NCBI GenBank assembly: GCA_965228485.1
Contig: OZ245819.1
Location: forward strand, 120,001-152,000
DNA from: Candidatus Saccharimonadota bacterium
GTDB lineage: Bacteria > Patescibacteriota > Gracilibacteria > UBA4473
Reading direction: 5' to 3'
DNA: 32,000 nucleotides
Below, one piece after another: positions 4,584 through 26,531 of this stretch (positions are counted from its first letter, which is position 1; every line of letters starts with the position of its first letter). Both the position numbers and the translations under genes were made by a program. The notes under the pieces are model-generated. The model ran no database searches. It was not told the DNA's origin and worked only from the letters and a program-made list of their open reading frames with translations.

Positions 4584-4599
4584 AAAAATACTTTAGATC

Positions 4600-4608
4600 T
4601 GTTATAAT
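4600..4608 (+). promoter_or_regulatory. Extended -10 promoter element TGTTATAAT
   Basis: TGnTATAAT match. The last T lies 8 nt upstream of ATG 4617, implying a leaderless or near-leaderless mRNA. Confidence 0.45.
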
Positions 4609-4616
4609 ACTCTGAA

Positions 4617-5114: not shown

Positions 5115-5152
5115 TCCTCTCGGAGAAGTGTCAGAGTAGGGGAGAGAAGTCT

Positions 5153-5932
5153 CTATTTTTTGCTGAATTTTTCTTTTACAATAAGATAAGAAAAGACAAT
5201 AACAGCGTTGAAGATACGATTTCCTCGCTTTTTAGGTTCTTTCAATAGTCTAAAGAGCCATTCAATCCCTATTTTTTGCATCCAAAAAGGAGCTCTGTCT
5301 ATCTTCCCAGCCCAAAAATCAAAAGTCCCACCAAATCCTCCTGCAATTCGACAATTCGGAATCTCGGTGATGAATGTTTTAATCCATTCTTCTTGTGCAG
5401 GAGCACCGAAAGCCACCAAAATGACATCAGGATTAGCTTCTTTTAGTTTTTTACTGATTGATTTTGGGTCGCCATCTTCAAATCCTGCTACTTTTAGGTT
5501 TGTATATTTTTTTTTCATGACCTTAGCCGCTTCTTTTGCTACGCCAAAACCGCCAAGAAAGTAGACGGTTTTATTGTTTTTGGCCGTGGTTTTACAGAGT
5601 AATTCAGCGATGTGAACTCCAGGTATTCTTTGAATACTTTTTTTGTACAATAATTTGCTCCATATACTAATGCCGCTTCCGTCACAGATATTTAACTCTG
5701 TACCATTTAAGATATTTTTAAAGCTCGTATTTTTATTGGCTTCAACCAGGAATTCAGGGTTAACGGTCGCAATATGATTAAACTTTTTACTGGCTAAAAA
5801 GTCGTCAAAAATTTCTTCAATTTTAGTTTCATCATGATTATCGATTCTAATTCCGAGTAGTTTGAAGTGATTCACAAAATTATTATAGAGTTCATTTTTT
5901 GTTTGACCAAAAAACGAACCAAAAAAGGTCAC
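5153..5932 (-). CDS. tagA: WecG/TagA/CpsF-family glycosyltransferase (UDP-ManNAc transferase-like)
   Basis: Family-typical blocks are present: ATVNPEFLVEA, CDGSGI, VYFLGGFG, ILVAFGAPAQEEWI, and GGTFDFWAGKIDRAPFWMQKIGIEWLFRLLKEPKKR. The start codon is GTG (cac at 5930-5932). Confidence 0.85.
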   Translation of the reverse strand: MTFFGSFFGQTKNELYNNFVNHFKLLGIRIDNHDETKIEEIFDDFLASKKFNHIATVNPEFLVEANKNTSFKNILNGTELNICDGSGISIWSKLLYKKSIQRIPGVHIAELLCKTTAKNNKTVYFLGGFGVAKEAAKVMKKKYTNLKVAGFEDGDPKSISKKLKEANPDVILVAFGAPAQEEWIKTFITEIPNCRIAGGFGGTFDFWAGKIDRAPFWMQKIGIEWLFRLLKEPKKRGNRIFNAVIVFSYLIVKEKFSKK

Positions 5933-6104
5933 CCTATTATATAAAATTTTGAAAACAATCAGCTTATTTACTAAAAATTAAAAACTCGCTTCGCTCAGAC
6001 ACTTTAATTTTTTAGCGTAAATTTTACTGTGTTTTCTTAGAAAAATTTATACAAATGGGATAATTTAGAAAAGACTGAAATTAGAGGTAATAAAAAATAG
6101 ATTT

Positions 6105-6419
6105 ATGACTCATTCAAAACGATTTACGCATAAAAATGATGGTTTTATCTGTGAGAACTGTGGGACAGAGGTGCCTCCAGCGCAGGGAACTTGTCGAAAT
6201 CATTGTACGAATTGTCTGTATTCAAAGCATGTTGATATAAATCCTGGAGACAGGGCTGCTAACTGTGGAGGGAAAATGAGACCTGTTCGTTTGGAACTCA
6301 AATCAGGATTGCCTTTTAAAATTATTCATGTTTGTGAAAAATGTGGATTTGAACGTCCAAACAAGGTAGCCGATGACGATAGCCGAGAGTCATTGTTTAC
6401 TCTCAATTCAGTGTTTTAG
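6105..6419 (+). CDS. RNHCP-domain zinc-ribbon-like protein
   Basis: The signature is CENCGTEVPP...CRNHCTNCLYSKHVD...NCGG...VCEKCG, i.e. four CxxC-type pairs plus an RNHC(P/T) motif. The 3' end overlaps the convergent gene by 4 nt. Confidence 0.6.
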   Translation: MTHSKRFTHKNDGFICENCGTEVPPAQGTCRNHCTNCLYSKHVDINPGDRAANCGGKMRPVRLELKSGLPFKIIHVCEKCGFERPNKVADDDSRESLFTLNSVF

Positions 6420-8350
6420 CGAGCCACAGAAACAAAGGCTTCTCCATTGGCACCACCGAACTCTTGTATGGCTTGGGCGAAAGTAACGGCATGTTCTTTG
6501 GGAATTCCCCAGCATCCCCAGGTAGTCCCATTTGATCCGTGCATTAAGATAGCTCTTCCAGCGGTATTGGTATTACCTGCTGCTGGATCAATGTTTCCTC
6601 CTTGTTCATAACTTGTTTTATAGCTTTGAGTCATTGGTTCCATTCCATGAACAGTGGCTCGTGCAGCATAACGATGGTTTGGAAGAAATGCTACGTCGCC
6701 TGGTTGAAAATAAAATGAACCTAGAGGGCTTCCATGACTCTTTGGAACGTTACTAATTCCACCACTTCCCCCGTGGCATTTTGTTTGAATGCTCCCTTTT
6801 CCAGGAATATAAATTAGGGCTCGTTGGGTTCCCAGATCATTGGCGAAAAAAGGACGATCGGCTGAAAAAGGTTTTCCTTGCTTATGAGCATTGATGGCAT
6901 GACGCATAACAGGGAGTGACCACCCTTCATCCCAACCTTCAGTAATTTTTTCAACAGCATCTTTATAGTTTTGAGGAAGGGCCTCATATTGAGCTTTCAT
7001 TTCTTCCCCATAAAACTCAGAATTTAGATTAATGGATCCAGGATGACCTTCAATGTTTCTCATACTTCCAGGAGAATGAGTATTTCCTCTTGGATTTGCC
7101 ACAGATAAAGGATTACCACTACTGTCGGTAGCTTTGCTGCCTGGTTTACCAAGGTTTGCAATATCTTTGAAGAGTTTAAAAAGGTCTAAAAGACTGAACT
7201 CACCATTTTGTCCTGGCGCCCCTCCCATCAAATTTAGAGCTTCGGCTTGCCCTTGAGGGGTAGTCGTGTCTATATTTGGATTGCTTTTGGCGACTTCGCC
7301 TAGTTTTTCTTTTAATTTTTTTGCTAGAGCCTCAGCATTTTTTAGGTATTCTTCTTTATTGTAAGCGAGGGGATTTCGGCTGTTGTCTAGACCAAACCCT
7401 TCGTAATTAATAGCTATGGCACGATAAAGAATTTGAGGATCTATATTGTTGGCTTTTGCAATTTCTTCAAGTGCTTTTTGAAGTGTTTTTTCTGTGCTTT
7501 CGGTTGCACGTTCGCCTGTTTCTAGATCGATTTCATTTAGTTCGTTTATTTTTAGGAATGTTGCGTATTCCTCTATAAGTTTTCGAGTTTTGGTTTCAAT
7601 GTCTTTGTCTGATAGATCCTTTGTTTCCAACATGTGGATAACATATCGACCAATATCATTTTTAAATTCCTCAGGAATAAAGATACTTGTTTCACCAGCT
7701 TTAGTTTCCTGGCTTTCTTTCTGCCTCTTTGCCCAAATCTCATCAAATTTCTCTTGGGTCAGTGGCACTTCTACAGAACTAGGTTCTTTCCCTTCTGTTC
7801 CTTCAACAATAGATTTTAGTGTTTTGTGGTAGGTGATTTCATCGGTAATCATTCTAGAAACCTCTGTTTGGATTTCTTCGTCTGATAATCCTTTGGTTTC
7901 TAAATTAGCGATTATTGAACTGGCAATAGTGTCTTTTAATTCTCCTGGAATATTGAGATTAACCGGAGGATTTTTTTCTATTTCAGCCCAAATTTCATCA
8001 AACTTATCTCTTTCTAATGGTTGTTCAATATTTCTTCCTTCAGTGGCGGCTTCGATGATTTTATCACTTAACCCAGCCAAATCATTTATGTCTGATAGTT
8101 TTCTTCCATCCAGTGCTTTTTCAATTAGAGGGCAAATATCAGTATAATCTTGTAATGTATTAGCACACCGAGCAGCTTCAGCCTGAATGAGTGCATCAGA
8201 AATTTGAGTACCTTTTTCGATATATTTTTTTATTTCTTCAGCATAGGTTCTTTCTCGTGTATCGGTTGCGGGGCTTTTATCCTCTGGTCCTGTTTCTTGG
8301 TAAACAAAACGAGATATTGAATTTTGAGGATATAAAAATAATTTTTTCAT
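6416..8350 (-). CDS. Leader-motif effector-like protein E4 (644 aa): acidic modular N-terminal part plus a C-terminal YkuD/L,D-transpeptidase-like domain
   Basis: The N-terminus MKKLFLYPQNSISRFVYQETGPED fits the shared motif. There is an internal ~73-aa duplication (7541-7765 and 7802-8020). The C-terminus has ILMHGSNGTTWGCWGIP, which resembles the YkuD signature HG(T/S)N...GC with a shortened loop (Cys codon at 6512-6514). Confidence 0.6.
   Translation of the reverse strand: MKKLFLYPQNSISRFVYQETGPEDKSPATDTRERTYAEEIKKYIEKGTQISDALIQAEAARCANTLQDYTDICPLIEKALDGRKLSDINDLAGLSDKIIEAATEGRNIEQPLERDKFDEIWAEIEKNPPVNLNIPGELKDTIASSIIANLETKGLSDEEIQTEVSRMITDEITYHKTLKSIVEGTEGKEPSSVEVPLTQEKFDEIWAKRQKESQETKAGETSIFIPEEFKNDIGRYVIHMLETKDLSDKDIETKTRKLIEEYATFLKINELNEIDLETGERATESTEKTLQKALEEIAKANNIDPQILYRAIAINYEGFGLDNSRNPLAYNKEEYLKNAEALAKKLKEKLGEVAKSNPNIDTTTPQGQAEALNLMGGAPGQNGEFSLLDLFKLFKDIANLGKPGSKATDSSGNPLSVANPRGNTHSPGSMRNIEGHPGSINLNSEFYGEEMKAQYEALPQNYKDAVEKITEGWDEGWSLPVMRHAINAHKQGKPFSADRPFFANDLGTQRALIYIPGKGSIQTKCHGGSGGISNVPKSHGSPLGSFYFQPGDVAFLPNHRYAARATVHGMEPMTQSYKTSYEQGGNIDPAAGNTNTAGRAILMHGSNGTTWGCWGIPKEHAVTFAQAIQEFGGANGEAFVSVAR
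7541..8020 (-). repeat. Intragenic duplication of a ~73-aa 'F(D/K)EIW...IPEE...LETKxLSD' module (two copies)
   Basis: Copy 1 is PLERDKFDEIWAEIEKNPPVNLNIPGELKDTIASSIIANLETKGLSDEEIQTEV. Copy 2 is PLTQEKFDEIWAKRQKESQ...IFIPEEFKNDIGRYVIHMLETKDLSDKDIETKT. A third copy lies in the neighbouring protein (10769-10987). Confidence 0.75.
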
Positions 8351-8353
8351 TTC

Positions 8354-9799
8354 TTAGCTTGGTGGGTGGTGTGCTCGAATTACTTTTTTACTATTTCCAG
8401 CACCATTAGCCGTCATTGTGTAAGTTTCTATTCGGGGAGGTTTTCCATTTCCTGGATAACTTGCCACTCTGGCCACACCATTACTTGGTTGTGAAAGTAG
8501 AATTGCACTGTGTGTTTTTCCTTGATTACACTGACCATTTCGACAATGATCAATCATGATATGAGAACCAGGTGGAAGTTTGTCGACTTCTTCGGGTCCT
8601 GCACCACCATTTGAACCAATTCCTGTTCCTGAACTAATTCGATTCACACGATAATTAATGGCTTTTGGGAGGGAGTGAATTTTGGAGCCATCGGTAGTCC
8701 CTTCTCCAAAAAAGACTTTTTCTACCCAGTGAGTACAGTGTCGAGCCCCCTTAACTCCGGCTCGTCCTTGCTGAACCCAGTTTAAAGCTCTATTAACGAC
8801 CGATGAATTTGTTTCGATACCTTCGATATTGTCGTTCAAAATTTGCTCTCCCGTATAATTTCGTCCACTAGTTGTCGTTGTATCACCTTGGGTACTACTT
8901 CCAAATAACTCTTTTAGTAATTTTTGAAGCGCTTCAAGAAGCGTTGTTAATAGGTCTTTGCCTTGTTCTGGGGTCGTCGTTGTAGCGTTTGGTTGTGTAA
9001 CTGCATTGCTAAGGTCTCGGGTCTCTGTTGGTGTTGGAGTAATAAGATTTTGAGGGTTCAAATCTCTTAATACTGGGTTATCTTTTATGTTTGTTTCAAA
9101 CTGTTTAACAAAGTCCTGAATTTTTTCGGGTGTAAGACTTTTAATATCATCAATACTAAGATTTTGAGCTAATGCTGTTGTTAATGCTTTTGGAGTGATT
9201 TTTAGTCTTCCGGTATCTAGTGATTCTGCAGCTGTGTTAATCGTGTCTCCGTGTGCTTCGGTAATAAGATTTTCTTTGTAGCCTTGGATTTCATCCTTTT
9301 CGTAATTATCTAAGTACTCAGTAATAGCTTTTTGTGCTTCCTCTTTTGAAGCGTACATCGCTTGATTATTCCATTCGAGATCTTCGATAATTTTTTCATG
9401 GGTTAATGTTTGCGATGGCTCTAATGGTGGTTCTAGTTTTGAAAAATTTTCATTGATCGTTTGAATTTTTTTATCAATATCACTTTTTTCTGCTTCTAGA
9501 TATTCTCTGTTTTTAGTAACAATTCTTTGTTTTAAAATTTCCCGAATTCGATTTTTTTGATCGGTTAATTCGGTGTTTTCCGTATCTTCTTCTAGAGTAG
9601 CTCTAATAATCCTGTGGGTTTCTTCTTCTCCTCTTTGATCAACTAAAGCTTGTATTTTGGCTTTAATTTCTTCGTCGGTGAGTTGTTCTTTTAGAAGCTC
9701 TGCTGCAGCACTTATTTCAGGCTCTTTTTCACCTTCTGGTCCACTATTGAAATAGAAGGTTTTTATCTCTAACTCTGATGTGTGTTTTAAATATTTCAT
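8354..9799 (-). CDS. Leader-motif effector-like protein E3 (481 aa) with a C-terminal CHAP/NlpC-P60-like cysteine peptidase/amidase domain
   Basis: The N-terminus is MKYLKHTSELEIKTFYFNSGPEGE. The C-terminus has GARHCTHWVEKVF (compare the CHAP QCTWxV Cys block), then PPGSHIMIDH and GKTHSAILL (His block). The domain spans about 8357-8857. Confidence 0.55.
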   Translation of the reverse strand: MKYLKHTSELEIKTFYFNSGPEGEKEPEISAAAELLKEQLTDEEIKAKIQALVDQRGEEETHRIIRATLEEDTENTELTDQKNRIREILKQRIVTKNREYLEAEKSDIDKKIQTINENFSKLEPPLEPSQTLTHEKIIEDLEWNNQAMYASKEEAQKAITEYLDNYEKDEIQGYKENLITEAHGDTINTAAESLDTGRLKITPKALTTALAQNLSIDDIKSLTPEKIQDFVKQFETNIKDNPVLRDLNPQNLITPTPTETRDLSNAVTQPNATTTTPEQGKDLLTTLLEALQKLLKELFGSSTQGDTTTTSGRNYTGEQILNDNIEGIETNSSVVNRALNWVQQGRAGVKGARHCTHWVEKVFFGEGTTDGSKIHSLPKAINYRVNRISSGTGIGSNGGAGPEEVDKLPPGSHIMIDHCRNGQCNQGKTHSAILLSQPSNGVARVASYPGNGKPPRIETYTMTANGAGNSKKVIRAHHPPS

Positions 9800-9802
9800 T
9801 TT

Positions 9803-11236
9803 TTATCCAATTCTACGAATCCCAATGAGGTTTTGACGACTCGATTTAACAGAGACTCTATTACTTTGATTTCCACCAACAATAATAGGTTTCCTGTTTC
9901 TATCCCAGCCAACAAATACTCCAACATGACCTCCGCTCCCTCGAGAGAAGATACAAAGATCTCCTGGTTGAGCATCACCTGGAGAGATGGCGGTTCCATG
10001 ATTTAAAAATTCTCTAGAAGAAGCCGTTTTTGGGCCATCAATTCCTGCTTTTTGCAATACCCAGCTGATAAATGAGGCGCACCAGGGAGTGCCTGGTCCA
10101 GCGTTAAGTCCTGCACATGCATGCATTTCTCGAATAAGTCCAGCGTTACCACTTTCACTTACTCCAATTGCCTCTAATGCTTTTGCTAGAATTGCTTTAT
10201 TTGTTCCCGTTGCTTGATCTAGAGCTTGTTGAGCAAAGGCTGGAGTGGCTTCTCCATTTCCATTAGGAAGTTCACCACTGATTTCATCACCAGAAACTCG
10301 GTCATTGTTAGAAAAACTGTATTTTTTACCCGTTGCAAATTCAAGAATAATTCGGATCAGATCCCAAAGAGTATTAATTTCTCCATTATTACTTTCTACT
10401 CGAGAAGGATCGACCGTCCCATCTCGTAAAACCTGAGCCGCTTGTGCGGGAGTTGGGTTGTCTCCGAGTTTTCCAAGATTTTCTCGCAGGGCACTTAAAT
10501 TTTGAATATTAAATTTTCGAAGTCTTTCGAGTGTGGCTTCATATCTTTTTTCCAATCCCTCTAGATCGTTTCCACCCTGTTCGTGTTTGAATCCGAGGCC
10601 AAGAGCATTACTCGCTCTTAAATAGGCAAGTAACTCTGGATCGATGTCGTCTTTTGCATCATTTGGATCTCCTTGGGCTAAGTGATCGATGTAATCACCC
10701 TCGGTTAGAAATCCTCCTGGGAAAGTGTATTGAGGTGTTCCATCAGGATTTTTTGGCACGGGATTGTCTAGTGCTAACATTTTAAAGAAGAGGGCTTCTT
10801 TTTCGATTGCTTCGGTAACTTTATTTTTTAGTGTATCTCCACTTGATCCTTTAGCTTCAAAGGTGTGTTGAACATAATCCCAAACCTGATCGTAAAGATC
10901 CTCAGGAATGTACATTCCGTTGAATCCTTCTTTCTTTTGAGCTTCAAGTCGTTCATTCCAAATCTCTTTGAAAGTTCCTTCTTCCAATGCTTGTTCTAAG
11001 ACAATTTCTTTTTTTTCTGCGTATTCTTTTCCCGTCATAACTTTGAACTCTGAATTCAAAATTTCTGCGTTAGTTTCTTCTCTTTCGGCATTAGTATCAG
11101 CTATTCTTTCAGCTTTTTCAGCCTCTATTGAAGCGGCAAGATCGGCATCTATATCTGTAGGTCTTGTTTCATTTCCACCACTTTGGTAGTAAAATGTTGT
11201 AATTTCTCGTACTTGATTTTTGTTTAAGTATTTCAT
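9803..11236 (-). CDS. Leader-motif effector-like protein E2 (477 aa) with a C-terminal TIGR02594-family (NlpC/P60-like) peptidoglycan hydrolase domain
   Basis: The N-terminus is MKYLNKNQVREITTFYYQSGGNE. The C-terminus is TPWCASFISWVLQKAGI...FLNHG...PGDLCIFSRGSGGHVGVFVG...IIVGGNQSNRVSV. This matches the family pattern PWCAaFV...GD...GHVGf...GGNQsn.V as I remember it. The Cys codon is at 10079-10081. Confidence 0.75.
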   Translation of the reverse strand: MKYLNKNQVREITTFYYQSGGNETRPTDIDADLAASIEAEKAERIADTNAEREETNAEILNSEFKVMTGKEYAEKKEIVLEQALEEGTFKEIWNERLEAQKKEGFNGMYIPEDLYDQVWDYVQHTFEAKGSSGDTLKNKVTEAIEKEALFFKMLALDNPVPKNPDGTPQYTFPGGFLTEGDYIDHLAQGDPNDAKDDIDPELLAYLRASNALGLGFKHEQGGNDLEGLEKRYEATLERLRKFNIQNLSALRENLGKLGDNPTPAQAAQVLRDGTVDPSRVESNNGEINTLWDLIRIILEFATGKKYSFSNNDRVSGDEISGELPNGNGEATPAFAQQALDQATGTNKAILAKALEAIGVSESGNAGLIREMHACAGLNAGPGTPWCASFISWVLQKAGIDGPKTASSREFLNHGTAISPGDAQPGDLCIFSRGSGGHVGVFVGWDRNRKPIIVGGNQSNRVSVKSSRQNLIGIRRIG

Positions 11237-11244
11237 GTTTTTAG

Positions 11245-12249
11245 TTAGGTAACTGATGAGTCTGAGGCTTCTCTCTTAGTAACGATAAGAGATCCATCTG
11301 GAGCTTCTCCTTGTTTTGGAGTTTTATCTCCATTAGCGGCGGCTTCAGCCGTGTTCCATTCAAAAGTTGATGGCATAGATTTGTAACAAACTTTATTTCC
11401 TTGATTACCACCAAGACATTGGCCTCCAACCTTGATACAAATGTGACCGAGACCACTTCCCCCAATACATTCTTGAGCTAGAGAAGCATCACCAATATCG
11501 TGTCCAGCTTGTTTACAAACGTAATTTACAAAATCTCGACACCAAGGTTGATCAGCTCCTCCTGGAGTATATTTGGCATTTCCTTCGGCATCACTATTGG
11601 CCTGACCAAGCTCTGCTTGTGCGGCTTGTACAACAGCTTCATTGTCCCCGCCAAGACCACTAAAGTCAGAGTTTTCCCAATCAATTCCGTTGGAGCCAAT
11701 TTGTTGTCCCAGTTGTTTTATAATGCGAGATTTTCCATCAATCGAATTTGCCATTTTTTCTCCTTCAGGATCACCATTAGTTTCTTCTCGAACTTTAGCC
11801 GCTTCTTCAGCATAGGTTTTAGCGACTTGTTCCAGATAACTTCTTAGTTGTGTTTCAATTTCTTGTCGTTGTGCTTCTATTGTTTCTTGAGTTACGTCAC
11901 TGTCTTTTGCTGCTCGAGCAGTATCAACTTGTTCTCCTTCAGCATCGTTTAGTGTGTCTTCAATACTTTTTTCTAATTGCGATCGATTCAAGACTTCTTT
12001 TCCAGCCGTTTGATTAATAAGATCACCAATTTGACCATGTGCCAAATTTTGCACAGCCGGAGGAACGGGGATTCCATCAATTTTAGTTTGAATATCACTG
12101 TTTCTTTGTTTGATCCAATCCGGGGTGATAACCGTCTTATCTTGACTAGGAGTGCTTCTCTCTGCGTCTTCAGGTCCTTTTGGTCCTTCTGCACTTAGAT
12201 ATAAGAATTTACTGTTAATATCGATAGCCTGTAGATTTAATTGTTTCAT
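11245..12249 (-). CDS. Leader-motif effector-like protein E1 (334 aa) with a diverged TIGR02594-like domain
   Basis: The N-terminus is MKQLNLQAIDINSKFLYLSAEGPKGPED. The C-terminal region is QPWCRDFVNYVCKQAGHDI...LGHICIKVGGQCLGGNQGNKVCY (about 11350-11637). Confidence 0.6.
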   Translation of the reverse strand: MKQLNLQAIDINSKFLYLSAEGPKGPEDAERSTPSQDKTVITPDWIKQRNSDIQTKIDGIPVPPAVQNLAHGQIGDLINQTAGKEVLNRSQLEKSIEDTLNDAEGEQVDTARAAKDSDVTQETIEAQRQEIETQLRSYLEQVAKTYAEEAAKVREETNGDPEGEKMANSIDGKSRIIKQLGQQIGSNGIDWENSDFSGLGGDNEAVVQAAQAELGQANSDAEGNAKYTPGGADQPWCRDFVNYVCKQAGHDIGDASLAQECIGGSGLGHICIKVGGQCLGGNQGNKVCYKSMPSTFEWNTAEAAANGDKTPKQGEAPDGSLIVTKREASDSSVT

Positions 12250-12254
12250 ATTTT

Positions 12255-12578
12255 TTATGAGAGTTGATTTAAGTCTGATTGGAGTGTTTCATCAGCTTTT
12301 TTATGTTCTACTTCTTCTTGTCGTTGAAATTCTTCTTCCATAGACATAAGAATGATGTGTTCCATTTTATGAAAAAAGTATGGTTCTTTTTTTAGTATTT
12401 CATTAAGAGCGTCTGTTTGAGCCTTGTCAGCTTCGATGAGGGTTTCATGAATGGTTATAAGCTGATCTTCTCTTAGTGTTGGTAACTTGGTTACTACCTT
12501 GGTTCGAATTTCTTGGCTTAAAACAAGGTTTCGTTTAACCAGCTTCAAGATATCATCTTTGATTTGCTCAATAGTCAT
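12255..12578 (-). CDS. Small helical 'P-family' protein P1 (107 aa), first gene of the minus-strand effector operon
   Basis: RNLVLSQEIRTKVV...EADKAQTDALNEILKKEPYFF aligns with RNLFLSKAVKEQIL...EEMDEKQTLLFRKVLEKNPHFF of the divergent paralog. The gap to the next gene is 5 nt. Confidence 0.7.
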   Translation of the reverse strand: MTIEQIKDDILKLVKRNLVLSQEIRTKVVTKLPTLREDQLITIHETLIEADKAQTDALNEILKKEPYFFHKMEHIILMSMEEEFQRQEEVEHKKADETLQSDLNQLS

Positions 12579-12584
12579 CAGTTC

Positions 12585-12593
12585 ATTGTACCA
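12585..12593 (-). promoter_or_regulatory. Extended -10 element TGGTACAAT (minus strand) for the P1-E1-E2-E3-E4 operon
   Basis: The reverse complement of 12585-12593 reads TGGTACAAT. Only 6 nt separate it from ATG 12578, implying a leaderless transcript. Confidence 0.45.
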
Positions 12594-12649
12594 TAAAATG
12601 AACTAAAAATAAAGTCTTGAGTTCGGGGTTTGTAATTGATGTTGTTTTC

Positions 12650-12658
12650 TGGTATAAT
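12650..12658 (+). promoter_or_regulatory. Extended -10 element TGGTATAAT for the plus-strand P2/Q1 unit
   Basis: TGnTATAAT match, 10 nt upstream of ATG 12669. It lies inside the tracked TTG-12636 ORF extension, which argues for the 12669 start. Confidence 0.45.
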
Positions 12659-12668
12659 GTCGCGACAA

Positions 12669-12983
12669 ATGAGTGAAAATCTTGAAGTTATCAAAGTTTT
12701 GTTAGGAAGAAATCTTTTTCTTTCTAAGGCTGTTAAAGAACAGATTTTAGCGTCTGATGAGAATTCTCAGACAGAAATTCTACCTATTTTGGAAGAAATG
12801 GATGAGAAACAGACTTTGCTGTTTAGAAAGGTTTTAGAAAAAAACCCTCACTTTTTTGGAGATTTGGAAAATATGGCCATTCACGAAGCTTTGCGAAAAT
12901 TAGTTCAGCAAGAAGAGGCCCTCCATTTAGAGGAGATTGAAATGGCTGAAAACGAATTAGATGATCTTATTTCAAAACTCTAG
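12669..12983 (+). CDS. Small helical 'P-family' protein P2 (104 aa from ATG 12669)
   Basis: Paralog of P1 (NPHFF/EPYFF block and M-D-x-K-Q-T core). The start was moved from the tracked 12636 because the promoter element sits at 12650-12658. It ends ENELDDLISKL, followed by the junction TAG-GCG-ATG. Confidence 0.7.
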   Translation: MSENLEVIKVLLGRNLFLSKAVKEQILASDENSQTEILPILEEMDEKQTLLFRKVLEKNPHFFGDLENMAIHEALRKLVQQEEALHLEEIEMAENELDDLISKL

Positions 12984-12986
12984 GCG

Positions 12987-13232
12987 ATGAAACGAGATGA
13001 GAACTGGTTCAAGATACATTTAAAAGCTTATGCGGCTCTTTCGCAAAAGCAGATTGATGAAATTTTTTCAGGAAATACGGCTTTATCTCGTAGTTTTGAA
13101 GTATTTTTAGGCAGAGTTTTTCCTGATTTTTTGAAAGATTTTATTGGTTATGAGAAGCATATCTTAAAGATTTTGAAAAAGTCTCAAAGACGTCGTAAAA
13201 TACAGGCTTTTCGTAAGAGTCTTTTTGGTTAA
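12987..13232 (+). CDS. Small 'Q-family' protein Q1 (81 aa)
   Basis: Clear paralog of 15775-15963: NWFKIHLKAYAALSQKQIDEIFSGNTALSRSFEVFLGRVFPDFLKDFIGYEK versus NWFSLQWQTYTELSKSELEKIFSTKRVLSSSFKVFLEQAYPDFLKDFLQYEK. Confidence 0.7.
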   Translation: MKRDENWFKIHLKAYAALSQKQIDEIFSGNTALSRSFEVFLGRVFPDFLKDFIGYEKHILKILKKSQRRRKIQAFRKSLFG

Positions 13233-13258
13233 ACAAGATTGTTTTTTTGTGGTATTTA

Positions 13259-13267
13259 TGTTACAAT
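13259..13267 (+). promoter_or_regulatory. Extended -10-like element TGTTACAAT
   Basis: TGnTAnAAT match, 23 nt upstream of ATG 13291. The elements at 15530 and 16982 have the same 23-nt spacing. Confidence 0.4.
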
Positions 13268-13290
13268 GGCGAGATTAATCATCATTTTTA

Positions 13291-15300
13291 ATGAAACACC
13301 TAAAACAGTTTTCGAATACTATTCCTTCTCGGTATTGTTTTCGTCTACCGACAGGAGGAGAAGTGGGAAGGGATGTAGAAAATTCTTTTGATTCTTCGCG
13401 AATGCTTATGATAGGGGATTCCAACACGATTCGTATGGGGACACATTTGCCAGGAGTCAAACTTGATGCGGAAGAAGGTCGTTCTATTAGTGCGATGCCT
13501 GCAGCTCTTAATAGAGCTCTTCAGCAAAGACCTAAGCCAGAGGTCGTGACTATTTTGGGAGGAACGAACGATGCTGGTAATTTAGCTACAATTCGGACTG
13601 CTTACACTCAAATGATAGAGACGGCTAGGGCTAATGGTGTGAAACTGGTTATTGGTACACTCCCACCATTAGAAGGACATAATGTCGAAGAAGCGAATAA
13701 ATTTATTCGTAGCTTAGCGGGAGCAGATGTTCGAGTGGTTGAACTTGGACAATACGCTATGGCGGGAGATGGAGTGCACTTCACTATGAGAGGGGGAGCG
13801 AAAGAGGCGGCGAATGCGATGCGGATTGGGGCTCAAGAATCGGTTGAGCCTGTTAAAGCTGAAGATTTAGCCGCTATCTTATCTCGAAATGCAGAAAAAC
13901 CAGAGAGTGAAGAAGTTAAAAACGCTATTAAGGAAACATCTAAATTACTTTCAGAAAAAGGAATTAGGCCAAAGGTGCTTCAGGCATATTTTGAAAAGCA
14001 TCCAGAAAAATTAGATGCCGAGTCGATTAAGGCTTTAGCGACGATTTTGGCCGATCAACAAAAAATTGCAGAGCTTCTTGGAAATACGACCGCAACAACA
14101 CTGTCAGCCGAAGAACAGACAGAGCTTAAAACACTAACACCAGATCAATTACTCAGAAAAGATGAGAATGAAAGGCTAAGATTTGTAACTCAGGGGGGTA
14201 TTTCAGCAGAAAAACTTGCCTCTGGAGAATCAAAAGAAATTACATTTAATTTTGATGAAGCTGGGAATAAAGAACTTTACTTAAAGACCACAGCAGGTCA
14301 GGTTTTGCCTCCTAATGTGCGTCAAGTAGTGGCCTCTGGTTCTAAGCAAGATGGAAGTACAATTTTTACTCGAAGAGGGTATAATGGAGAATTCTTTTCT
14401 CCTTCTGGGGCGCGTTTAAAAATTCACAATGGAACAACTATTAAAGTTGTTGAAGGGGAAGAAGGGTTTGTTGCCAATAATAAATTAGAGGAATTTAAAT
14501 CTACTTTTACTAAAGATGTAAAAGCTGTTTTGGAAGAAGCGGGTATCAAAGAAGATTCGGAAGGATATGAAAGATTGTCTCGAGCCACTGAAATGGCCGC
14601 ACTTAAAGGCGTTGATCTTCGTATTGCTTTGGCTTTGGCCAAAAGTGATACCTTTAAAGGCGTAAGTGATGAAGACTTTCCAGCTAAGTTCGAAGAAGTA
14701 CTTACCCAAGCTCATCGTTTACAGAATGGAATGTCTGAAACCCAAATCATGAAAGATGGGAAGCTGAATTTGAATCTTGCTCAACAATGGTTGAGTCGAT
14801 ATATCACTGATCGAGATCAGCTGAAAAGCTTGCTTTCAGAGCTTAAAGGGTCTGACGGAGAGACGTACTATACAGAAGAAGATCTTAGAGCTTTGGAAAA
14901 TATTGAAGTTGCTGCTGGAAAAAAATTGTCAGGAGAGCAGGCTTATGCATTGGCTGCAAAATATTTTCCAACTGAACCAGTCGATAAAGTTGTAGCGATT
15001 ATGATCGGGGAGAGTGGGCTTGATCCTCGTGCGGGTAATAACTACCAAGCAGGGCATACTGGTCTGATGCAGATTAGTGGACTTCATCGTGATGGTTTGA
15101 TTAAAGATGGGATTATTGACCCTAATCGTGATTACCGAGAACAGCTTTATGATCCTGAAACAAATATGGCAGCAGCTAGATGGGTCTTTAATAAACAGGG
15201 ATGGGGAGCTTGGGAAGCTGGTCCGAATCATAAGCCTGGTTACTATGCTCAGAATCTGGCAAGAGCTCAGGCAATGAAGCCTTCGACAGCGGTCGCTTAA
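13291..15300 (+). CDS. Leader-motif protein (669 aa): N-terminal SGNH/GDSL hydrolase, long linker, then a C-terminal SLT-type lytic transglycosylase (GH23-like)
   Basis: The N-terminus MKHLKQFSNTIPSRYCF fits the motif spacing. The SGNH blocks are LMIGDSNT (I), LGGTNDA (III) and GDGVHFT (V), within about 13399-13830. The SLT blocks are VAIMIGESGLDPRA (Glu codon at 15010-12), GHTGLMQIS and AAARWVF, within about 14923-15240. Confidence 0.8.
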   Translation: MKHLKQFSNTIPSRYCFRLPTGGEVGRDVENSFDSSRMLMIGDSNTIRMGTHLPGVKLDAEEGRSISAMPAALNRALQQRPKPEVVTILGGTNDAGNLATIRTAYTQMIETARANGVKLVIGTLPPLEGHNVEEANKFIRSLAGADVRVVELGQYAMAGDGVHFTMRGGAKEAANAMRIGAQESVEPVKAEDLAAILSRNAEKPESEEVKNAIKETSKLLSEKGIRPKVLQAYFEKHPEKLDAESIKALATILADQQKIAELLGNTTATTLSAEEQTELKTLTPDQLLRKDENERLRFVTQGGISAEKLASGESKEITFNFDEAGNKELYLKTTAGQVLPPNVRQVVASGSKQDGSTIFTRRGYNGEFFSPSGARLKIHNGTTIKVVEGEEGFVANNKLEEFKSTFTKDVKAVLEEAGIKEDSEGYERLSRATEMAALKGVDLRIALALAKSDTFKGVSDEDFPAKFEEVLTQAHRLQNGMSETQIMKDGKLNLNLAQQWLSRYITDRDQLKSLLSELKGSDGETYYTEEDLRALENIEVAAGKKLSGEQAYALAAKYFPTEPVDKVVAIMIGESGLDPRAGNNYQAGHTGLMQISGLHRDGLIKDGIIDPNRDYREQLYDPETNMAAARWVFNKQGWGAWEAGPNHKPGYYAQNLARAQAMKPSTAVA

Positions 15301-15479
15301 GAGTCAAAAGAGGGGCTCTGAGTGATTATGGGCTTTCTCAATTAGAAGCGGATAAACAAGCCGGTAGAGTGCCACAAACGATCGGTTGGTCTTTTGGCGC
15401 TAATGATATTATGTCCGGAAATTCAGGAGCCGCCCTTACAAATGCAGAAGCGGCGAAAGCTTTAGGGCTTCAGGCCTAA
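15300..15479 (+). pseudogene. Remnant of an SGNH-hydrolase paralog (3' part of a 16071-16931-like gene with a 72-codon internal deletion and no start codon)
   Basis: It translates as RVKRGALSDYGLSQLEADKQAGRVPQTIGWSFGANDIMSGNSGAALTNAEAAKALGLQA*. The intact gene reads RVKRGAQSSYGLAQLEADKQAGRVPKTIGWSFGANDIMSGNSGAALTNAEAA[72 aa]KALGLQA*. Block I (GDS) and block V (DGVH) are missing. No in-frame ATG, GTG or TTG occurs before 15369. Confidence 0.8.
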
Positions 15480-15726
15480 TTTTACAGCTCGTTTGATGTC
15501 TTAAAACCCTTTTAAAAAAGATTGTTTTGTGATATAACAATCCGATTCATTTAATAAAAGTATGAAACTAAAACTTAATGATTTCGCTATCGAGAAGACT
15601 CGTTTTATTTTCAAGACTCCGGATGAGATTTATGGAGCGGCTCCAGAAAGAGATATTTCTAATGATCCAGAGGCACTCGTTAAGCAGTATAAGGAACTGT
15701 TTCAATCAGAGTCTCCAGAAGAAATT
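15301..15726 (+). repeat. Segmental duplication, copy 1 (SGNH 3' remnant, intergenic promoter, and effector leader)
   Basis: Colinear with 16537-16690 plus 16907-17178. I counted 18 mismatches by hand in the first 154 nt, and the remainder looks similarly conserved by eye. Confidence 0.85.
15530..15538 (+). promoter_or_regulatory. Extended -10-like element TGATATAAC (duplicate of the 16982 element)
   Basis: TGnTATAAc, 23 nt upstream of ATG 15562. It lies inside the duplicated segment. Confidence 0.4.
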
Positions 15727-15771
15727 AAAACCGCCGAAAAAGAACAGGATGATTTAATTGCTAAAATGTAG
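15562..15771 (+). CDS. Chimeric mini-ORF (69 aa): the effector leader region fused to a P-family C-terminal tail
   Basis: Residues 1-55 (MKLKLNDFAIEKTRFIFKTPDEIYGAAPERDISNDPEALVKQYKELFQSESPEEI) match the N-terminus of the 969-aa protein, with 7 differences. The tail KTAEKEQDDLIAKM resembles the P2 tail MAENELDDLISKL. The same TAG-GCG-ATG junction leads into a Q gene. Confidence 0.6.
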   Translation: MKLKLNDFAIEKTRFIFKTPDEIYGAAPERDISNDPEALVKQYKELFQSESPEEIKTAEKEQDDLIAKM

Positions 15772-15774
15772 GCG

Positions 15775-15963
15775 ATGCCAACTAAAAAAAATTGGTTTAG
15801 TTTACAGTGGCAGACCTATACAGAATTGAGTAAGTCTGAACTAGAGAAAATCTTTTCTACTAAAAGAGTACTTTCGAGTAGTTTTAAGGTTTTTTTGGAG
15901 CAAGCTTATCCAGATTTTTTGAAAGACTTTCTTCAATATGAAAAAAAAATCGAAGAATCTTAA
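15775..15963 (+). CDS. Small 'Q-family' protein Q2 (62 aa)
   Basis: Paralog of Q1 (see 12987-13232), with the same 3-nt spacing after the preceding stop. Confidence 0.65.
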   Translation: MPTKKNWFSLQWQTYTELSKSELEKIFSTKRVLSSSFKVFLEQAYPDFLKDFLQYEKKIEES

Positions 15964-16035
15964 AGCGCTCTGCTAGACCAAAAAAAATGCAAGTTTGGAA
16001 GGAATAAATTATGTGTAGACAAGTAGTGAAATTTC

Positions 16036-16044
16036 TGGTACAAT
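16036..16044 (+). promoter_or_regulatory. Extended -10 element TGGTACAAT
   Basis: TGnTACAAT, 26 nt upstream of ATG 16071. The downstream leader GATCGGATTTTAAC resembles GATCTGATTTATTTAAC downstream of the 16982 element. Confidence 0.4.
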
Positions 16045-16070
16045 GATCGGATTTTAACTTTAATTAGAAA

Positions 16071-16931
16071 ATGAGTTTGGGTCCCGAAGCAGGAAACAGA
16101 GTCGATATAAGAGAGGGGAGAGAAGTGCCTGGGGTTATTCCGACAAAAGCCATCACCACGGCTTTGACGAAGGTTGTTCAGTCTGGAAAAGAGAAAGAGG
16201 TTGTCGCAGCTGTTCGCCAAAATGTGCCAGAAGCCGCCGGTGATATTAAAAATTTAGAGGCAACCCTCGGCGATTTAATGAAAAAATTGAGAGAGTTTAT
16301 TTCAAACTTTTTTTCTGGAGCCAAAACAACGGATACGGCTGATACAAATGGAACAAATCCGCCGCCAAACACTCCAAATACTCCAGGTACTCCAAATACT
16401 TCAGGTGCTGATCCGGCACGAGAGCCAACCGCCGCTGAGAGAGAAGCGGCGGCAGAAGCTTTAAGGTCTCTTGGCCCTATAGAAAGTGTTTATGGGGATT
16501 CTCATGCAGAAGGATTAACAGGCGGTACATCGGCAAGAGTCAAAAGGGGGGCGCAGAGTTCTTATGGACTCGCACAACTAGAAGCGGATAAGCAAGCCGG
16601 TAGAGTTCCAAAAACGATTGGTTGGTCTTTTGGAGCTAACGATATTATGTCCGGAAATTCAGGAGCCGCGCTTACCAATGCAGAAGCGGCTATAAAAATT
16701 GCGGAAACGGCCGGATCGAAGTTTACCTTGATTGCGGTTCCTCCGATGTCAAAAAATGGGAAACAGGGCGAAGTAGATGCTCTTAACGCCCAATATAAAG
16801 CTTTGGCAGCTAGATATCCACATGTGACTTTCGTTAATCCGTATATCGGAATGAGGAATAGATCTGACGGGGTTCATTTAGCTATGAGTGACTATGCAGC
16901 AGCGGCGAAAGCTTTAGGGCTTCAGGCCTAA
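16071..16931 (+). CDS. SGNH/GDSL-family hydrolase (286 aa) with the family amphipathic helix and a Pro/Asn/Thr-rich linker, but without the N-terminal leader motif
   Basis: The SGNH blocks are VYGDSHAEG (I), WSFGANDI (III) and SDGVHLA (V). The helix is LGDLMKKLREFISNFFSG (16266-16319), followed by TNGTNPPPNTPNTPGTPNTSG. Confidence 0.75.
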   Translation: MSLGPEAGNRVDIREGREVPGVIPTKAITTALTKVVQSGKEKEVVAAVRQNVPEAAGDIKNLEATLGDLMKKLREFISNFFSGAKTTDTADTNGTNPPPNTPNTPGTPNTSGADPAREPTAAEREAAAEALRSLGPIESVYGDSHAEGLTGGTSARVKRGAQSSYGLAQLEADKQAGRVPKTIGWSFGANDIMSGNSGAALTNAEAAIKIAETAGSKFTLIAVPPMSKNGKQGEVDALNAQYKALAARYPHVTFVNPYIGMRNRSDGVHLAMSDYAAAAKALGLQA

Positions 16932-17178
16932 TTTTATCGGCAGTTTGATCACTTAAAATCCTTTTAAAAAAGGTTGTTTTGTGATATAATGATCTGATTT
17001 ATTTAACAAAAATATGAAACTAAAACTTAATCAGTTCGCTATCGAGAAGGCTCGTTTTATTTTTAAGACTCCCGATGAGATTGATGGAGCCGGTCCAGCA
17101 AGAGATATTTCTAATGATCCAGAGGCACTCGTTAAGCAGTATAAGGAATCGCTTCAATCAGAGTCTCCAGAAGAAATT
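16537..17178 (+). repeat. Segmental duplication, copy 2 (intact version; 16691-16906 is absent from copy 1)
   Basis: See copy 1. The 216-nt segment missing from copy 1 is bounded by the near-identical direct repeats GCAGAAGCGGC (16680-16690) and GCAGCAGCGGC (16896-16906). Confidence 0.85.
16982..16990 (+). promoter_or_regulatory. Extended -10 element TGATATAAT
   Basis: Perfect TGnTATAAT, 23 nt upstream of ATG 17014. Confidence 0.45.
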
Positions 17179-19923
17179 GCTGCGGCGACAAAAGCCATTG
17201 ATAAGTATATTGAAAGTAAAGCTTCTGCGCTGGTAGAAAAAGGGGGGGCTCCACTAGTAAGAGCCGAAATCAGAAAAGCCGCAGACCCATCACTTGATGA
17301 AGTTATTGATAAGGTGGAAGCTCGATATGAAGCTTCGGATGGCGGAATCCTCAACGTGACAGAGCTAAAGTCGATGATCACAATTTATTCAACGGCTGAA
17401 GAACGAAGTCTTCTAGAAGCACGAGCAAAAGAAATTTTAGATGAAGATGATCTAAAATCCTTTAATGAACATTTGGCAGCGATTGATGCAAAGTTAGCAG
17501 AAACTTCTTATGAAGCCAATCGAGATAGTTTTGAAAGAACTCATACAAGAGAAGATGATAGACCGGTTTATGAAAGAGTTAATCCAAATACCTTAGCCTC
17601 AAGTGCCGCTATTTTAGGGAAAAGCTACAACCGTCCTGGAGGGAGAGGTGAAGCTAAATACTTTTCTGATGCGGATCATAATGCCGTGGTAGATGAAGAT
17701 ATGGGAGCCATTCATCGGTCAGTGACGAAAGAAATGCTTGATGGATTTCTAGAAGAAAACTCGACTATCAAAGATAAACTTAATAACGGAAAGGTTGATA
17801 TATCAAGACTTTCTGATGAAGAGCTAACCGCTTATGCCAGATTTTACGGAAAAGTTTTAAGTGAGTCTAAGATTGAAGGAAATGCGGTTGATGGTTTGTT
17901 ACTTCCGACAGAGATTACCCGACCTGGGGGGCTCATTGAGGGACAAGCTCGAGGGATGGCAACGAGTAATGAGGATTTGGCTCGAAGATCAAATCTTTTC
18001 ATTAAAGCGCTTAGAGAAGGTGGATATACCGGATCTATCACGATGAAGCACTGGCCTGGTTATACCGGGGTGGGGAACTCGGATGAAGAAATGGTTTACG
18101 GAAAGGTTGACCAGGGGACACTAGAAGCTCTGAAAGGGGTCGAAGGGGCTAATTCAATCATGGTTTCAAGTCTTCATCTAGAAGATTTTGGAAGTAATGT
18201 GGGAAAAGACAGAGCCGATATGCTTCCTGTTTTTGCAGATCCTGAAGCGATTGCGAAACTTCGAGAGGGGCATGAAAACATGAAAGTCATGACCGATGAC
18301 CTTTCGGCTTATGTCAATGCTCGAGTGGCTCAAGGAGATACTCGTGATCGTTCAGAGATTGTAAAAGAAACAGCCTTGAAAACTTTAAAAGCTGGTGTTG
18401 ATCAGGTTATGTTTGCCGATCCCAAAGATCAAAGAACAGCTGAAAGTGTTGTAAAATCTTATATGGAAGATCTTCAAGCAAGAGCAAAAGAAGGGGATGA
18501 AGCCGCTAGAACCGAATATGAAGCGCGAGTAAAAAGAATGGAAGCGGCAAGAGGAACTGCTGGAGAGGAATTATCACCCGAAGCTAAGGCCTGGGTCGAT
18601 GATGTTGTTGCTCGTGAAACAGCGGCGAAAGCGGAAGGCCGATCCTTAGAAGGTTTCGGTGCTTCAGAAGTAGCGGAAGCGGATGTTCCAAAAGAATGGA
18701 CCGACAGTGAAGCCACAGTAGCGGACAAAGAAGCTATTACAAAACTAGCGGAAGGTTTAGATGCAGAAACTCAAGCAGAAATCAAAAAATTACTAGAGGA
18801 AGGAGGAGAAGCAAATCTTGCTAAAGCTCGTGAGTTAGCGCTAGTCAAACAGGGAGAGAAATTACTTTCTGGTAAAAGCGGTACGGAAGTTTTGGATATT
18901 GTTGAGCAAAACCCAGACGCGGCGTTTAATCATTTCTTCCAAGCGGAAGAAGGAAAAGAAAATACCTGGAAAGTTGATTTCAAAGGGGTAGATGAGCGTC
19001 TGCTTGGAGCGGGTCACTTTGAAAAGAACCTAATGGCTAAGTTCCAATACGTTAAAATTTTCAACCCTAAAACAGGGGAGACTAATATTGGTGTTCGGGG
19101 TGTTAAGCCAGGAAGTGAAAAACCCGGTTATTTTGACATTCATACTGGGAAATACCTTCCAATCTGGACGGGGAGTGTGATTAAAGGTCTAACCGCTAAA
19201 GATATTAGTGAGATGGATATTAAGACTCAGAATGCCATGCGGGGTGAACACGGAAAACCAATGAGCATTAAAGATTATTTAGCTCAGGCTAAAGAAAAAC
19301 GGAAATCTTATCGTACCTCTGTTGAAAATGGAACGGCTCAGCATCAAATTGGGGGAGAAAACCCTTTAAATGCGAAATTAAGTAAGGAGGCAGGACGAGA
19401 GGTTGTTCCAGAAAAACAAGCAAAACTTCGGAATGCAGTTGGGACACTTATGAGAGATAAGTCTCGTTATAAGGCTGTTGCTCAGAAACATAATGTCCCA
19501 TGGGAGCTTCTAGCGGCTATCCAGTACCGAGAAGCGAGCGGGAATCTAAATAAATATTTCCTAAATGGTCAGACCGTTGGAACAACAACGACGATTGTTC
19601 CAAAAGGTTTGAGATTTGATACTTGGGAAGCTTCGGCTGAACACGCTATCGTAAATAGAGACCATTATGGTTTTAAATCTTTAGGAACGGATCCATCTCC
19701 TCATGCGGTTGCAAACCTGACCGAGCGATATAATGGGATGGGATACAGCAAAAGAGGGCTTGTAAGCCCTTATGTATGGGCTGGACATCCTTCTTATGAG
19801 AACCAAGGTGGTATGTTCGTTTCAGACGGAAACTTTGATCGAAATGCTAAAGATGGACGGCTGGGAGTTATGCCAATTTATATGGAACTCAGACGCCAAC
19901 AAGGTAAGGAAGCGACCTCCTAA
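17014..19923 (+). CDS. Leader-motif protein (969 aa) with a C-terminal COG5526-type lysozyme-family domain and a possible central GH3/NagZ-like region
   Basis: The N-terminus is MKLKLNQFAIEKARFIFKTPDE. The C-terminus (about 19420-19900) is PWELLAAIQYREASGN...VPKGLRFDTWEASAEHAI...ERYNGMGYSKRGLVSPYVWAGHPSYENQGGMFVSDGNFDRNAKDGRLGV. This matches my recollection of the COG5526 pattern (PW..iAaiH.RE / E.yNG.GY / SPYLW.g...Y.kGkyv.DG.fd). Central MKHWPGYTGVGNSDE...MVSSLH...VMTDDLSA (about 17881-18333) weakly recalls GH3 KHFPGHG...DSH...SDDL.M. Confidence 0.65.
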   Translation: MKLKLNQFAIEKARFIFKTPDEIDGAGPARDISNDPEALVKQYKESLQSESPEEIAAATKAIDKYIESKASALVEKGGAPLVRAEIRKAADPSLDEVIDKVEARYEASDGGILNVTELKSMITIYSTAEERSLLEARAKEILDEDDLKSFNEHLAAIDAKLAETSYEANRDSFERTHTREDDRPVYERVNPNTLASSAAILGKSYNRPGGRGEAKYFSDADHNAVVDEDMGAIHRSVTKEMLDGFLEENSTIKDKLNNGKVDISRLSDEELTAYARFYGKVLSESKIEGNAVDGLLLPTEITRPGGLIEGQARGMATSNEDLARRSNLFIKALREGGYTGSITMKHWPGYTGVGNSDEEMVYGKVDQGTLEALKGVEGANSIMVSSLHLEDFGSNVGKDRADMLPVFADPEAIAKLREGHENMKVMTDDLSAYVNARVAQGDTRDRSEIVKETALKTLKAGVDQVMFADPKDQRTAESVVKSYMEDLQARAKEGDEAARTEYEARVKRMEAARGTAGEELSPEAKAWVDDVVARETAAKAEGRSLEGFGASEVAEADVPKEWTDSEATVADKEAITKLAEGLDAETQAEIKKLLEEGGEANLAKARELALVKQGEKLLSGKSGTEVLDIVEQNPDAAFNHFFQAEEGKENTWKVDFKGVDERLLGAGHFEKNLMAKFQYVKIFNPKTGETNIGVRGVKPGSEKPGYFDIHTGKYLPIWTGSVIKGLTAKDISEMDIKTQNAMRGEHGKPMSIKDYLAQAKEKRKSYRTSVENGTAQHQIGGENPLNAKLSKEAGREVVPEKQAKLRNAVGTLMRDKSRYKAVAQKHNVPWELLAAIQYREASGNLNKYFLNGQTVGTTTTIVPKGLRFDTWEASAEHAIVNRDHYGFKSLGTDPSPHAVANLTERYNGMGYSKRGLVSPYVWAGHPSYENQGGMFVSDGNFDRNAKDGRLGVMPIYMELRRQQGKEATS

Positions 19924-26444: not shown

Positions 26445-26467
26445 AACTAAGATTTAATTTCTATCTG

Positions 26468-26500: not shown

Positions 26501-26531
26501 TCTTATGTTTTTTTCGATAAAATTTTTGTAA

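Follow-up and report, generated by a model that had tools for sequence, protein, structure and literature searches.

Two divergent operons of tagged genes

Here we describe a gene cluster in a stretch of 32,000 nt (contig OZ245819.1, positions 120,001 to 152,000; hereafter the window), in which proteins with unlike C-terminal domains, most of them predicted cell-wall enzymes, begin with the same peptide of about 19 residues, hereafter the tag. The tag is real, N-terminally anchored and specific. All positions follow the window numbering, and the letters A to H and the u-names denote open reading frames (ORFs) of the window. Related loci are designated L001, L002/L007, L003, L004/L005, L006, L008 and L016/L017, and their proteins carry matching prefixes (L3_, L6_ and so on).

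The cluster consists of two divergent operons, with u107, D, C, B and A on the minus strand and u104, u81, E, F, u62, H and G on the plus strand. The tagged minus-strand proteins are D (11245–12249; 334 aa), with a diverged TIGR02594-like domain (PWC...GH); C (9803–11236; 477 aa), with an endopeptidase domain of the TIGR02594/NlpC-P60/CHAP type; B (8354–9799; 481 aa), with a C-terminal domain of unverified family that has a conserved Cys and His; and A (6416–8350; 644 aa; MKKLFLYPQNSISRFVYQETGPED), with helical repeat modules and a probable YkuD-like C-terminus (L,D-transpeptidase fold). On the plus strand, E (13291–15300; 669 aa) combines an SGNH/GDSL esterase domain, a middle domain and an SLT lytic transglycosylase domain, and the C-terminal ~160 residues of G (17014–19923; 969 aa) form a widespread uncharacterised domain that is possibly lysozyme-like (HYRE[AS]S ... 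YNGxGY). An earlier reading made from the sequence only (hereafter the sequence-only reading) had named seven tagged ORFs, A to G; all seven lie where it placed them, start with ATG and have exactly the N-termini that it quoted.

The remaining genes of the two operons are small or derived. A small all-helical protein, u107 (12255–12578, minus strand), heads the minus-strand operon, and its paralogue u104 (12669–12983, plus strand), likewise small and helical, heads the plus-strand operon. The plus strand also encodes u81 (12987–13232), a small uncharacterised protein, and its paralogue u62 (15775–15963; BLAST, 47% identity, 7e-19). Segment F (15442–15771, plus strand) is a duplicate of the promoter and 5' end of G and contains a chimeric ORF of 69 aa (15562–15771). 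Gene H (16071–16931, plus strand; 286 aa) is untagged, begins at a linker of the GPE type and has its own promoter-like site.

The divergent intergenic region (12579–12668) holds promoter-like sites for both operons, namely TTGTAA-17-TATAAT with an extended TG on the plus strand (12630–12658) and TGGTACAAT upstream of u107. A -10-like box (TAtAAT) lies ~23–29 nt before the ATG of E, F, H, G and u107, and a promoter scan called promoter-like sites 5' of u104, H and G. Shine-Dalgarno sequences are not present, and the gene starts are A-rich. The gaps between D, C, B and A measure 3–8 nt and contain no ORF, which is also the case in the related loci. C and B, and likewise B and A, are in the same frame, separated by a stop and one codon (TAA AAA ATG at 9797–9805 and TAA GAA ATG at 8348–8356, minus strand), an arrangement that suggests coupling by termination and reinitiation.

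Conservation and distribution of the tag

In the seven window ORFs the tag follows the pattern M-K-x-L ... [T/K/R]-[F/Y]-x-[F/Y] and is succeeded by a linker rich in Pro, Gly, Glu and Asp, as the sequence-only reading had claimed. Across 36 proteins from the seven genomes that share the locus, the consensus is M-K-x-L-x-N-x(6-7)-[T/S]-[K/R/Q]-F-[I/L]-[F/Y/W]-x-E, and the tag always begins at residue 1, as it does again in an eighth genome. The fixed spacing proposed earlier holds in the window but not throughout the relatives, where six of the 36 proteins have a deletion of one residue; in a few, position 15 is Leu or position 17 is not aromatic. Positions 1, 2, 4, 6 and 13–17 carry the most information, and from about position 20 onwards the information content is that of background. 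Between pairs of proteins with different catalytic groups, residues 2–19 are 26.5% identical (8.3% expected by composition), whereas the identity of residues 20–37 is that of chance (9.4%, with 9.1% expected).

A regular expression for the tag was run over the window and two related loci (75 kb), where, out of 256 real or spurious ORFs with a length of 50 aa or more, it retrieved only the tagged proteins. The tag matches no Pfam or NCBIfam model, and no description of the motif or of the order UBA4473 was found in the searchable literature. The conserved residues are encoded by synonymous codons, third codon positions agree less well than the first two, and Rfam has no match in the region, all of which indicates that the constraint acts on the peptide. 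An element acting at the RNA level was rejected on the same variation of third positions and the same lack of an Rfam match.

A and G themselves are found in the protein database on just one contig, of 1,295,315 bp. Protein A has a single other homologue among 5.8 billion proteins. Together with 28 relatives of the small helical proteins, this homologue led to six further genomes with loci of the same gene order (L001, L002/L007, L003, L004/L005, L006 and L008). A metagenome scan with the small-protein profile added only the eighth genome (L016/L017). All eight genomes with tag and locus belong to the class Gracilibacteria within the candidate phyla radiation (CPR). Locus L002 is from assembly GCA_009995455.1 (Crystal Geyser), which GTDB places in Patescibacteria, class Gracilibacteria, order UBA4473 (PMC11760937, supplement). 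The placement of this relative confirms the earlier guess of a CPR organism with a small genome, which for the window is ~1.3 Mb.

More tagged proteins in other lineages were recovered by searching 1.84 billion cluster representatives with the C-terminal domain of G. Protein P0179 (MRLIWKIKFTADKRFIWETGG) is tagged, combines NlpC/P60 with a G-type domain, and is encoded by a gene that stands alone, flanked by the suf operon and thyA/folA. The gene for P0058 lies in a reduced version of the RNHCP...HU locus, where it adjoins a u107 homologue. A contig of Gracilibacteria with genetic code 25 carries three adjacent wall-enzyme genes with diverged tags (MFFLQQLFSLFFMQCFSYQESPD, MLTLQYIIRQFYLQVFVLAGPED and MFIINQIHAQIHSQLMNYEVQGG); these N-termini are related to the tag, free of Lys, and rich in Gln and Phe. 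In L003, a tagged protein of 1079 aa with a G-like N-terminus (L3_1079) is encoded outside the cluster, directly after type IV pilin genes (L003 19277–20315). The sequence-only reading had staked its proposal on an N-terminally anchored motif that recurs outside this locus; the tag is anchored at residue 1 and recurs in eight genomes and in more distant lineages.

Three side observations concern these relatives. The pilin genes of the window (25872–27071) are followed by a gene for a membrane protein with a CoA_binding_3 domain, at the place where L003, the closest relative, has L3_1079. In L004, a gene call of 604 aa (4427–6241, minus strand) begins 16 codons 5' of the tag Met and overlaps the preceding gene, so that its start is probably wrong. 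The database translations of P0033 and P0037 (locus L011) have Trp where the family has Gly (HNWQPLG, FNGLWYRNRW) because TGA, which encodes Gly in these code-25 genomes, was read as Trp; when the genes are translated with code 25, the conserved glycines come back.

Catalytic domains, rearrangements and neighbouring genes

By sequence comparison the catalytic domains belong to wall-active families, with B and G excepted from firm assignment. The earlier statement that every C-terminus is a cell-wall enzyme is supported for C, D and E and probable for A, but the evidence is faint for G and does not extend to B. Protein C matches TIGR02594 with 82 bits (cut-off 70.55), CHAP with E=3.5e-7 and NlpC_P60 with E=1.5e-6, in agreement with its predicted family. 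The same prediction for D is partly sustained: D is similar to C (BLAST, 8e-7) and has kept PWC and GH, but its match to TIGR02594 is partial and reaches only 21.9 bits. Orthologues of D are present in six other genomes. The predicted fusion of SGNH and SLT domains in E is confirmed by matches to GDSL_2 (33.3 bits, cut-off 32.9) and SLT (32.3 bits, cut-off 21.3).

The YkuD-like domain proposed for A is probable through a homologue, although A itself has no Pfam match: L6_461, which is homologous to the C-terminus of A (BLAST, 1.5e-21), matches PF03734 (YkuD) with 21.8 bits (cut-off 23.4; E=3e-4), and A contains a conserved HG...TWGCWG motif (HG...TWGCxG). An AlphaFold2 model of A built on an alignment of two sequences was too poor for a fold search (predicted local distance difference test, pLDDT, 45). 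The assignment of B to a CHAP-like family did not hold. B has no Pfam match at E<=5 and no meaningful PDB matches in a profile search, and hhalign gives a probability of 0.5% against the C/D-type profile; its Cys...His pattern is conserved, and its C-terminal domain shares 55–60% identity with that of L3_573. When the C-termini of A, B and G were searched against the PDB as single sequences, nothing was found.

G had been compared to lysozyme-like proteins of COG5526, and a faint similarity to lysozymes and transglycosylases was indeed found, but the domain belongs to a large family of its own (2780 cluster representatives at E<=1e-3) that is covered by no Pfam model. Its profile reaches goose lysozyme at E=0.7 and MltF/MltB at E ~0.01–0.03; against PF11860 muramidases hhalign gives a probability of 2.8% and aligns only the YNGxGY motif. 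The Glu in HYRE[AS]S is invariant in the family, and 141 of its 151 top members have no hydrophobic N-terminus. The family, represented by the domain of G at 19246–19920 (plus strand) in the window and by proteins P0032–P0181, includes a separate subgroup of proteins of 600–800 aa with another N-terminal pattern (MNFxxxKxGFxxYL...). Sister genomes add a PF11860 muramidase and a Peptidase_M15_3 protein to the enzyme set.

The tagged enzymes have a layout of four parts: the tag of ~19 residues from Met1, a non-conserved Pro/Gly/acidic linker, a long and mostly helical spacer of 200–750 residues, and an exchangeable catalytic domain. The C-terminus of the E-type scaffold is SLT in the window, a transglycosylase-like domain ending in 'HEGY' in L1_726 and a G-type domain in L2_745, and L4_508 joins the N-terminal half of the muramidase family to a 'HEGY' C-terminus. 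By these sequence comparisons, C-terminal domains are shuffled between genomes on a common scaffold of N-terminal and middle parts. As the enzyme set is largely alike from genome to genome, it seems closer to a conserved toolkit than to a hypervariable arsenal. Paralogy of the middle parts, asserted earlier for the whole cluster, was found by BLAST for A, B and C but not for the remaining members.

The chimeric ORF had also been recognised correctly. F is a copy of 285 nt (15442–15726) that is 90% identical to 16894–17178, with a tail like the end of u104. The copy spans the promoter, the leader and the first 55 codons of G and is followed by u62, itself a copy of u81; F is thus not an independent member. 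The duplication and the u81/u62 pair point to recent recombination inside the plus-strand operon.

Related enzymes without the tag are encoded in the same loci. H and its orthologue L3_280 start at the linker, L3_511 is an orthologue of C minus its first ~30 residues, and L3_475 is a transglycosylase-like protein with a Lys-rich N-terminus (L003 5448–6983 and 8453–9880, minus strand, for the C orthologue and the transglycosylase-like protein). The M23 peptidase of L012 (423–1205, minus strand) has neither tag nor signal peptide. H has a sub-threshold match to DUF459 (SGNH type) only. An in-frame sequence upstream of H ('MCRQVVKFLVQ*SDFNFN*K') was considered as a decayed tag and rejected, as this DNA consists of the promoter (TGGTACAAT) and a leader with homology to the leaders of F and G.

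The small helical proteins u107 and u104 (mechanical ORF u115) are similar to each other (BLAST, 4e-10) and form a family with 28 relatives only, all lineage-restricted. Members stand at the operon heads in every locus-sharing genome examined, and a member also accompanies the distant, reduced locus L012. Orthologue alignments place the true start of u104 at Met 12669, 11 codons downstream of the mechanical ORF start at 12636, and its AlphaFold2 model (pLDDT 88) has four helices. At the position of u81, the closest relative L003 has a gene of 90 aa; an equivalent was not found in L001, L002, L004, L006 or L008.

The flanks consist of ordinary chromosomal genes, which encode WecG, an RNHCP-domain protein, HU, PheS, sigma-70, GreA, PurC, two type IV pilins, GyrB and YceG/MltG. 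Beside the cluster, in all locus-sharing genomes, are three conserved plus-strand genes (11–2071, 2073–4583 and 4617–5114) for proteins of 686, 836 and 165 aa, which have no Pfam or PHROGs match. The protein of 836 aa spans the membrane once, near residue 660, and the 165-aa protein has a conserved stretch, 'SESMKDxERQYWFNL'. A protein of 440 aa (20389–21711, minus strand), encoded at the same position in every related genome, has no Pfam match; it begins with a conserved N-terminus (MGINFNFGLGGK) and contains 3.8 tandem copies of a 126-nt repeat that encode Ala/Pro/Glu-rich 'ENPFAA' units, as well as a coiled-coil region and a Lys-rich tail.

Possible functions of the tag and related systems

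Peptidoglycan is located outside the membrane, and wall enzymes must therefore leave the cytoplasm to act. The view that the tagged N-termini contain no Sec, Tat or lipoprotein signal was borne out by hydropathy and motif scans. Within the first 40 aa, the 36 members have best Kyte-Doolittle means over 10 residues of -0.7 to 1.59, which is short of a Sec signal; the best 19-residue mean is at most 1.06 for the tagged proteins of the window, compared with 1.97 for YceG in the same window. An RR-type motif is absent from the first 35 aa of all 36 members and a lipobox (L-[ASTVI]-[GAS]-C) from the first 40 aa, and the pilin signal model PF07963 matches the two pilin genes (25872–27071) and none of the tagged proteins. 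The N-termini of YceG/MltG and the pilins are hydrophobic in the normal way, which shows that ordinary signals are used elsewhere in the organism. A double-glycine leader with an ATP-binding cassette exporter was considered and rejected, as there is no fixed Gly-Gly and the nearby gene of 632 aa encodes GyrB.

The tag is the sole element common to enzymes whose catalytic domains are otherwise unrelated, which suggests that tag and linker form a docking peptide. Through it, the enzymes would all be passed on to the same partner, most likely a route of Sec-independent export, surface display or cell-to-cell delivery, with u104 and u107 as candidate adaptors or chaperones. The presence of the tag on members outside the cluster (L3_1079 and P0179) is consistent with this reading. 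We see an even chance that the tag is a docking peptide for a common partner, probably such a route. The more specific proposal, that the tag is the address label of a new Sec-independent route in Gracilibacteria, by which episymbionts place wall-cutting enzymes on or into the host envelope with u104 and u107 as adaptors, is put forward tentatively, as a possibility with the odds against it. The organism has MltG/YceG and presumably its own peptidoglycan, and the enzymes could thus serve to remodel that wall rather than to attack a host.

Several observations weigh against a docking peptide for export. Secretion machinery is not recognisable in the ~20-kb flanks of seven genomes, and a Foldseek search of the PDB with the u104 model gave nothing below E=0.9, that is, no likeness to known chaperones or adaptors. 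P0179 is tagged, yet there is no small helical gene nearby, and conversely H, L3_280, L3_511, L3_475 and the M23 peptidase of L012 are related enzymes that do without the tag. For B and G, the assignment of the domain is not firm. The tag has no clear amphipathic signal (mean z 0.3 for helical and 0.0 for strand spacing), and the idea of an amphipathic helix was dropped for lack of periodicity. Gene order is the same in every genome with the locus, housekeeping genes included, and the neighbourhood therefore carries little weight. Finally, the case for export by the tag is built from sequence comparisons.

The main rival is a control element. The tag could be a degron, or a peptide bound by an inhibitor or chaperone, that keeps the hydrolases inactive or short-lived until they are released by another means, for instance regulated lysis or a holin-like event. 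Such a role would leave the route of the enzymes to the wall unexplained, and we regard it as unlikely. A short N-terminal peptide with a flexible linker would also suit recognition by a protease or an adaptor, but the locus contains no gene for a protease, adaptor or holin, and neither u81 nor u62 is hydrophobic. Small helical proteins at the head of both operons would fit a control function as well, although none is encoded next to the tagged P0179; the untagged enzymes that persist in the loci indicate that the enzymes can exist without the tag.

It is improbable that the tag is a functionless relic of gene duplication or of a favourable context for translation start. The genes are paralogous and lie in one cluster, F demonstrates that 5' ends are duplicated here, MK starts are common, and the starts are A-rich and lack Shine-Dalgarno sequences. 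Against this, conservation is limited to residues 1–19 and drops to chance right after; the most conserved positions after Met-Lys are 13–17, ~40–50 nt into the gene and encoded by synonymous codons; and the tag is kept across lineages whose other sequence has diverged beyond recognition.

A cytoplasmic role, in which the enzymes recycle or digest imported muropeptides and require no export signal, is very improbable. Lytic transglycosylases, muramidases and SGNH O-acetyl esterases target polymeric glycan strands and not small cytoplasmic fragments, YkuD-type enzymes work on wall cross-links, and spacers of 200–750 residues are hard to account for in soluble recycling enzymes. This is set against the scavenging of building blocks by CPR bacteria, the cytoplasmic location of some enzymes of the NlpC/P60 and L,D-carboxypeptidase types in other bacteria, and the lack of signal peptides in most homologues of the C-terminal domain of G.

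The architecture of polymorphic toxins, which the sequence-only reading had seen in the cluster, is present in the conserved N-terminus with swapped C-termini, but the immunity genes and variable repertoire that would go with it are not, and no secretion apparatus was seen in the ~20-kb flanks. Type IV secretion system (T4SS) genes occur in many Patescibacteria (PMC12102498). A classical toxin-immunity system served by a known machine (type VI, type VII or type IV secretion system or contractile injection system) nevertheless has a very low probability, given that no immunity-type genes lie between the enzymes, that the ~20-kb flanks of seven genomes contain no machine genes, that there are no Pfam matches to LXG, WXG, MIX, PAAR, Rhs or similar models, that no phage or tail signal extends beyond the catalytic domains, and that the enzyme repertoire is stable between genomes. 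A phage or prophage origin was rejected, as PHROGs matches only the catalytic domain of C and, weakly, a lipase in E.

How CPR bacteria with tiny genomes and a dependence on hosts breach or remodel walls is largely unknown, and little has been mapped of their protein export apart from Sec and type IV filaments. If the tag is an address label, it provides a sequence handle for listing, across an entire CPR class, the proteins that are exported or directed at hosts, points to a missing export pathway, and offers a portable tag for experiments. Even if the tag is regulatory, the locus represents a conserved modular toolkit of wall enzymes, and it exposes a large family of wall-enzyme-like domains (~2800 cluster representatives) without a Pfam model.

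The proteins form a marker-tagged modular enzyme family that falls outside each known family tested. Like the LXG effectors of the type VII secretion system (T7SSb) and the MIX effectors of the type VI secretion system (T6SS), they have a conserved N-terminal marker, exchange C-terminal enzyme domains between homologues, and are encoded in clusters; the small helical partners encoded upstream of LXG toxins resemble u104 and u107. In contrast to those effectors, the marker has ~19 residues instead of a domain of 100–200 residues, genes for immunity proteins, T6SS or T7SS were not seen, and the repertoire is conserved and not hypervariable. Pfam searches for LXG (PF04740) and WXG100 (PF06013) gave no match at E<=0.1 among the window members or at E<=0.01 among those of L001.

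The capsid-targeting sequence of phage T4 and the encapsulation peptides of microcompartments are peptides of ~10–20 residues at the extreme N-terminus, joined by a flexible linker to unrelated cargo, and bind one common partner. Their likeness to the tag is one of logic only: the locus has no capsid, shell or encapsulin genes and no phage signal, and the cargo consists of wall hydrolases. The hydrolases of monoderm conjugation (CwlT, PrgK and TcpG) are also multi-domain proteins, which combine a glycan-cutting domain with NlpC/P60 or CHAP much as P0179 combines NlpC/P60 with a G-type domain, but they carry an N-terminal membrane anchor or signal and are encoded in T4SS operons, neither of which applies to the tagged proteins. 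The autolysins p60 and NamA of Listeria, which are exported by SecA2, keep the signal peptides that the tagged proteins lack; if the tag is an export label, the two systems would have in common that some of the wall hydrolases take a dedicated route.

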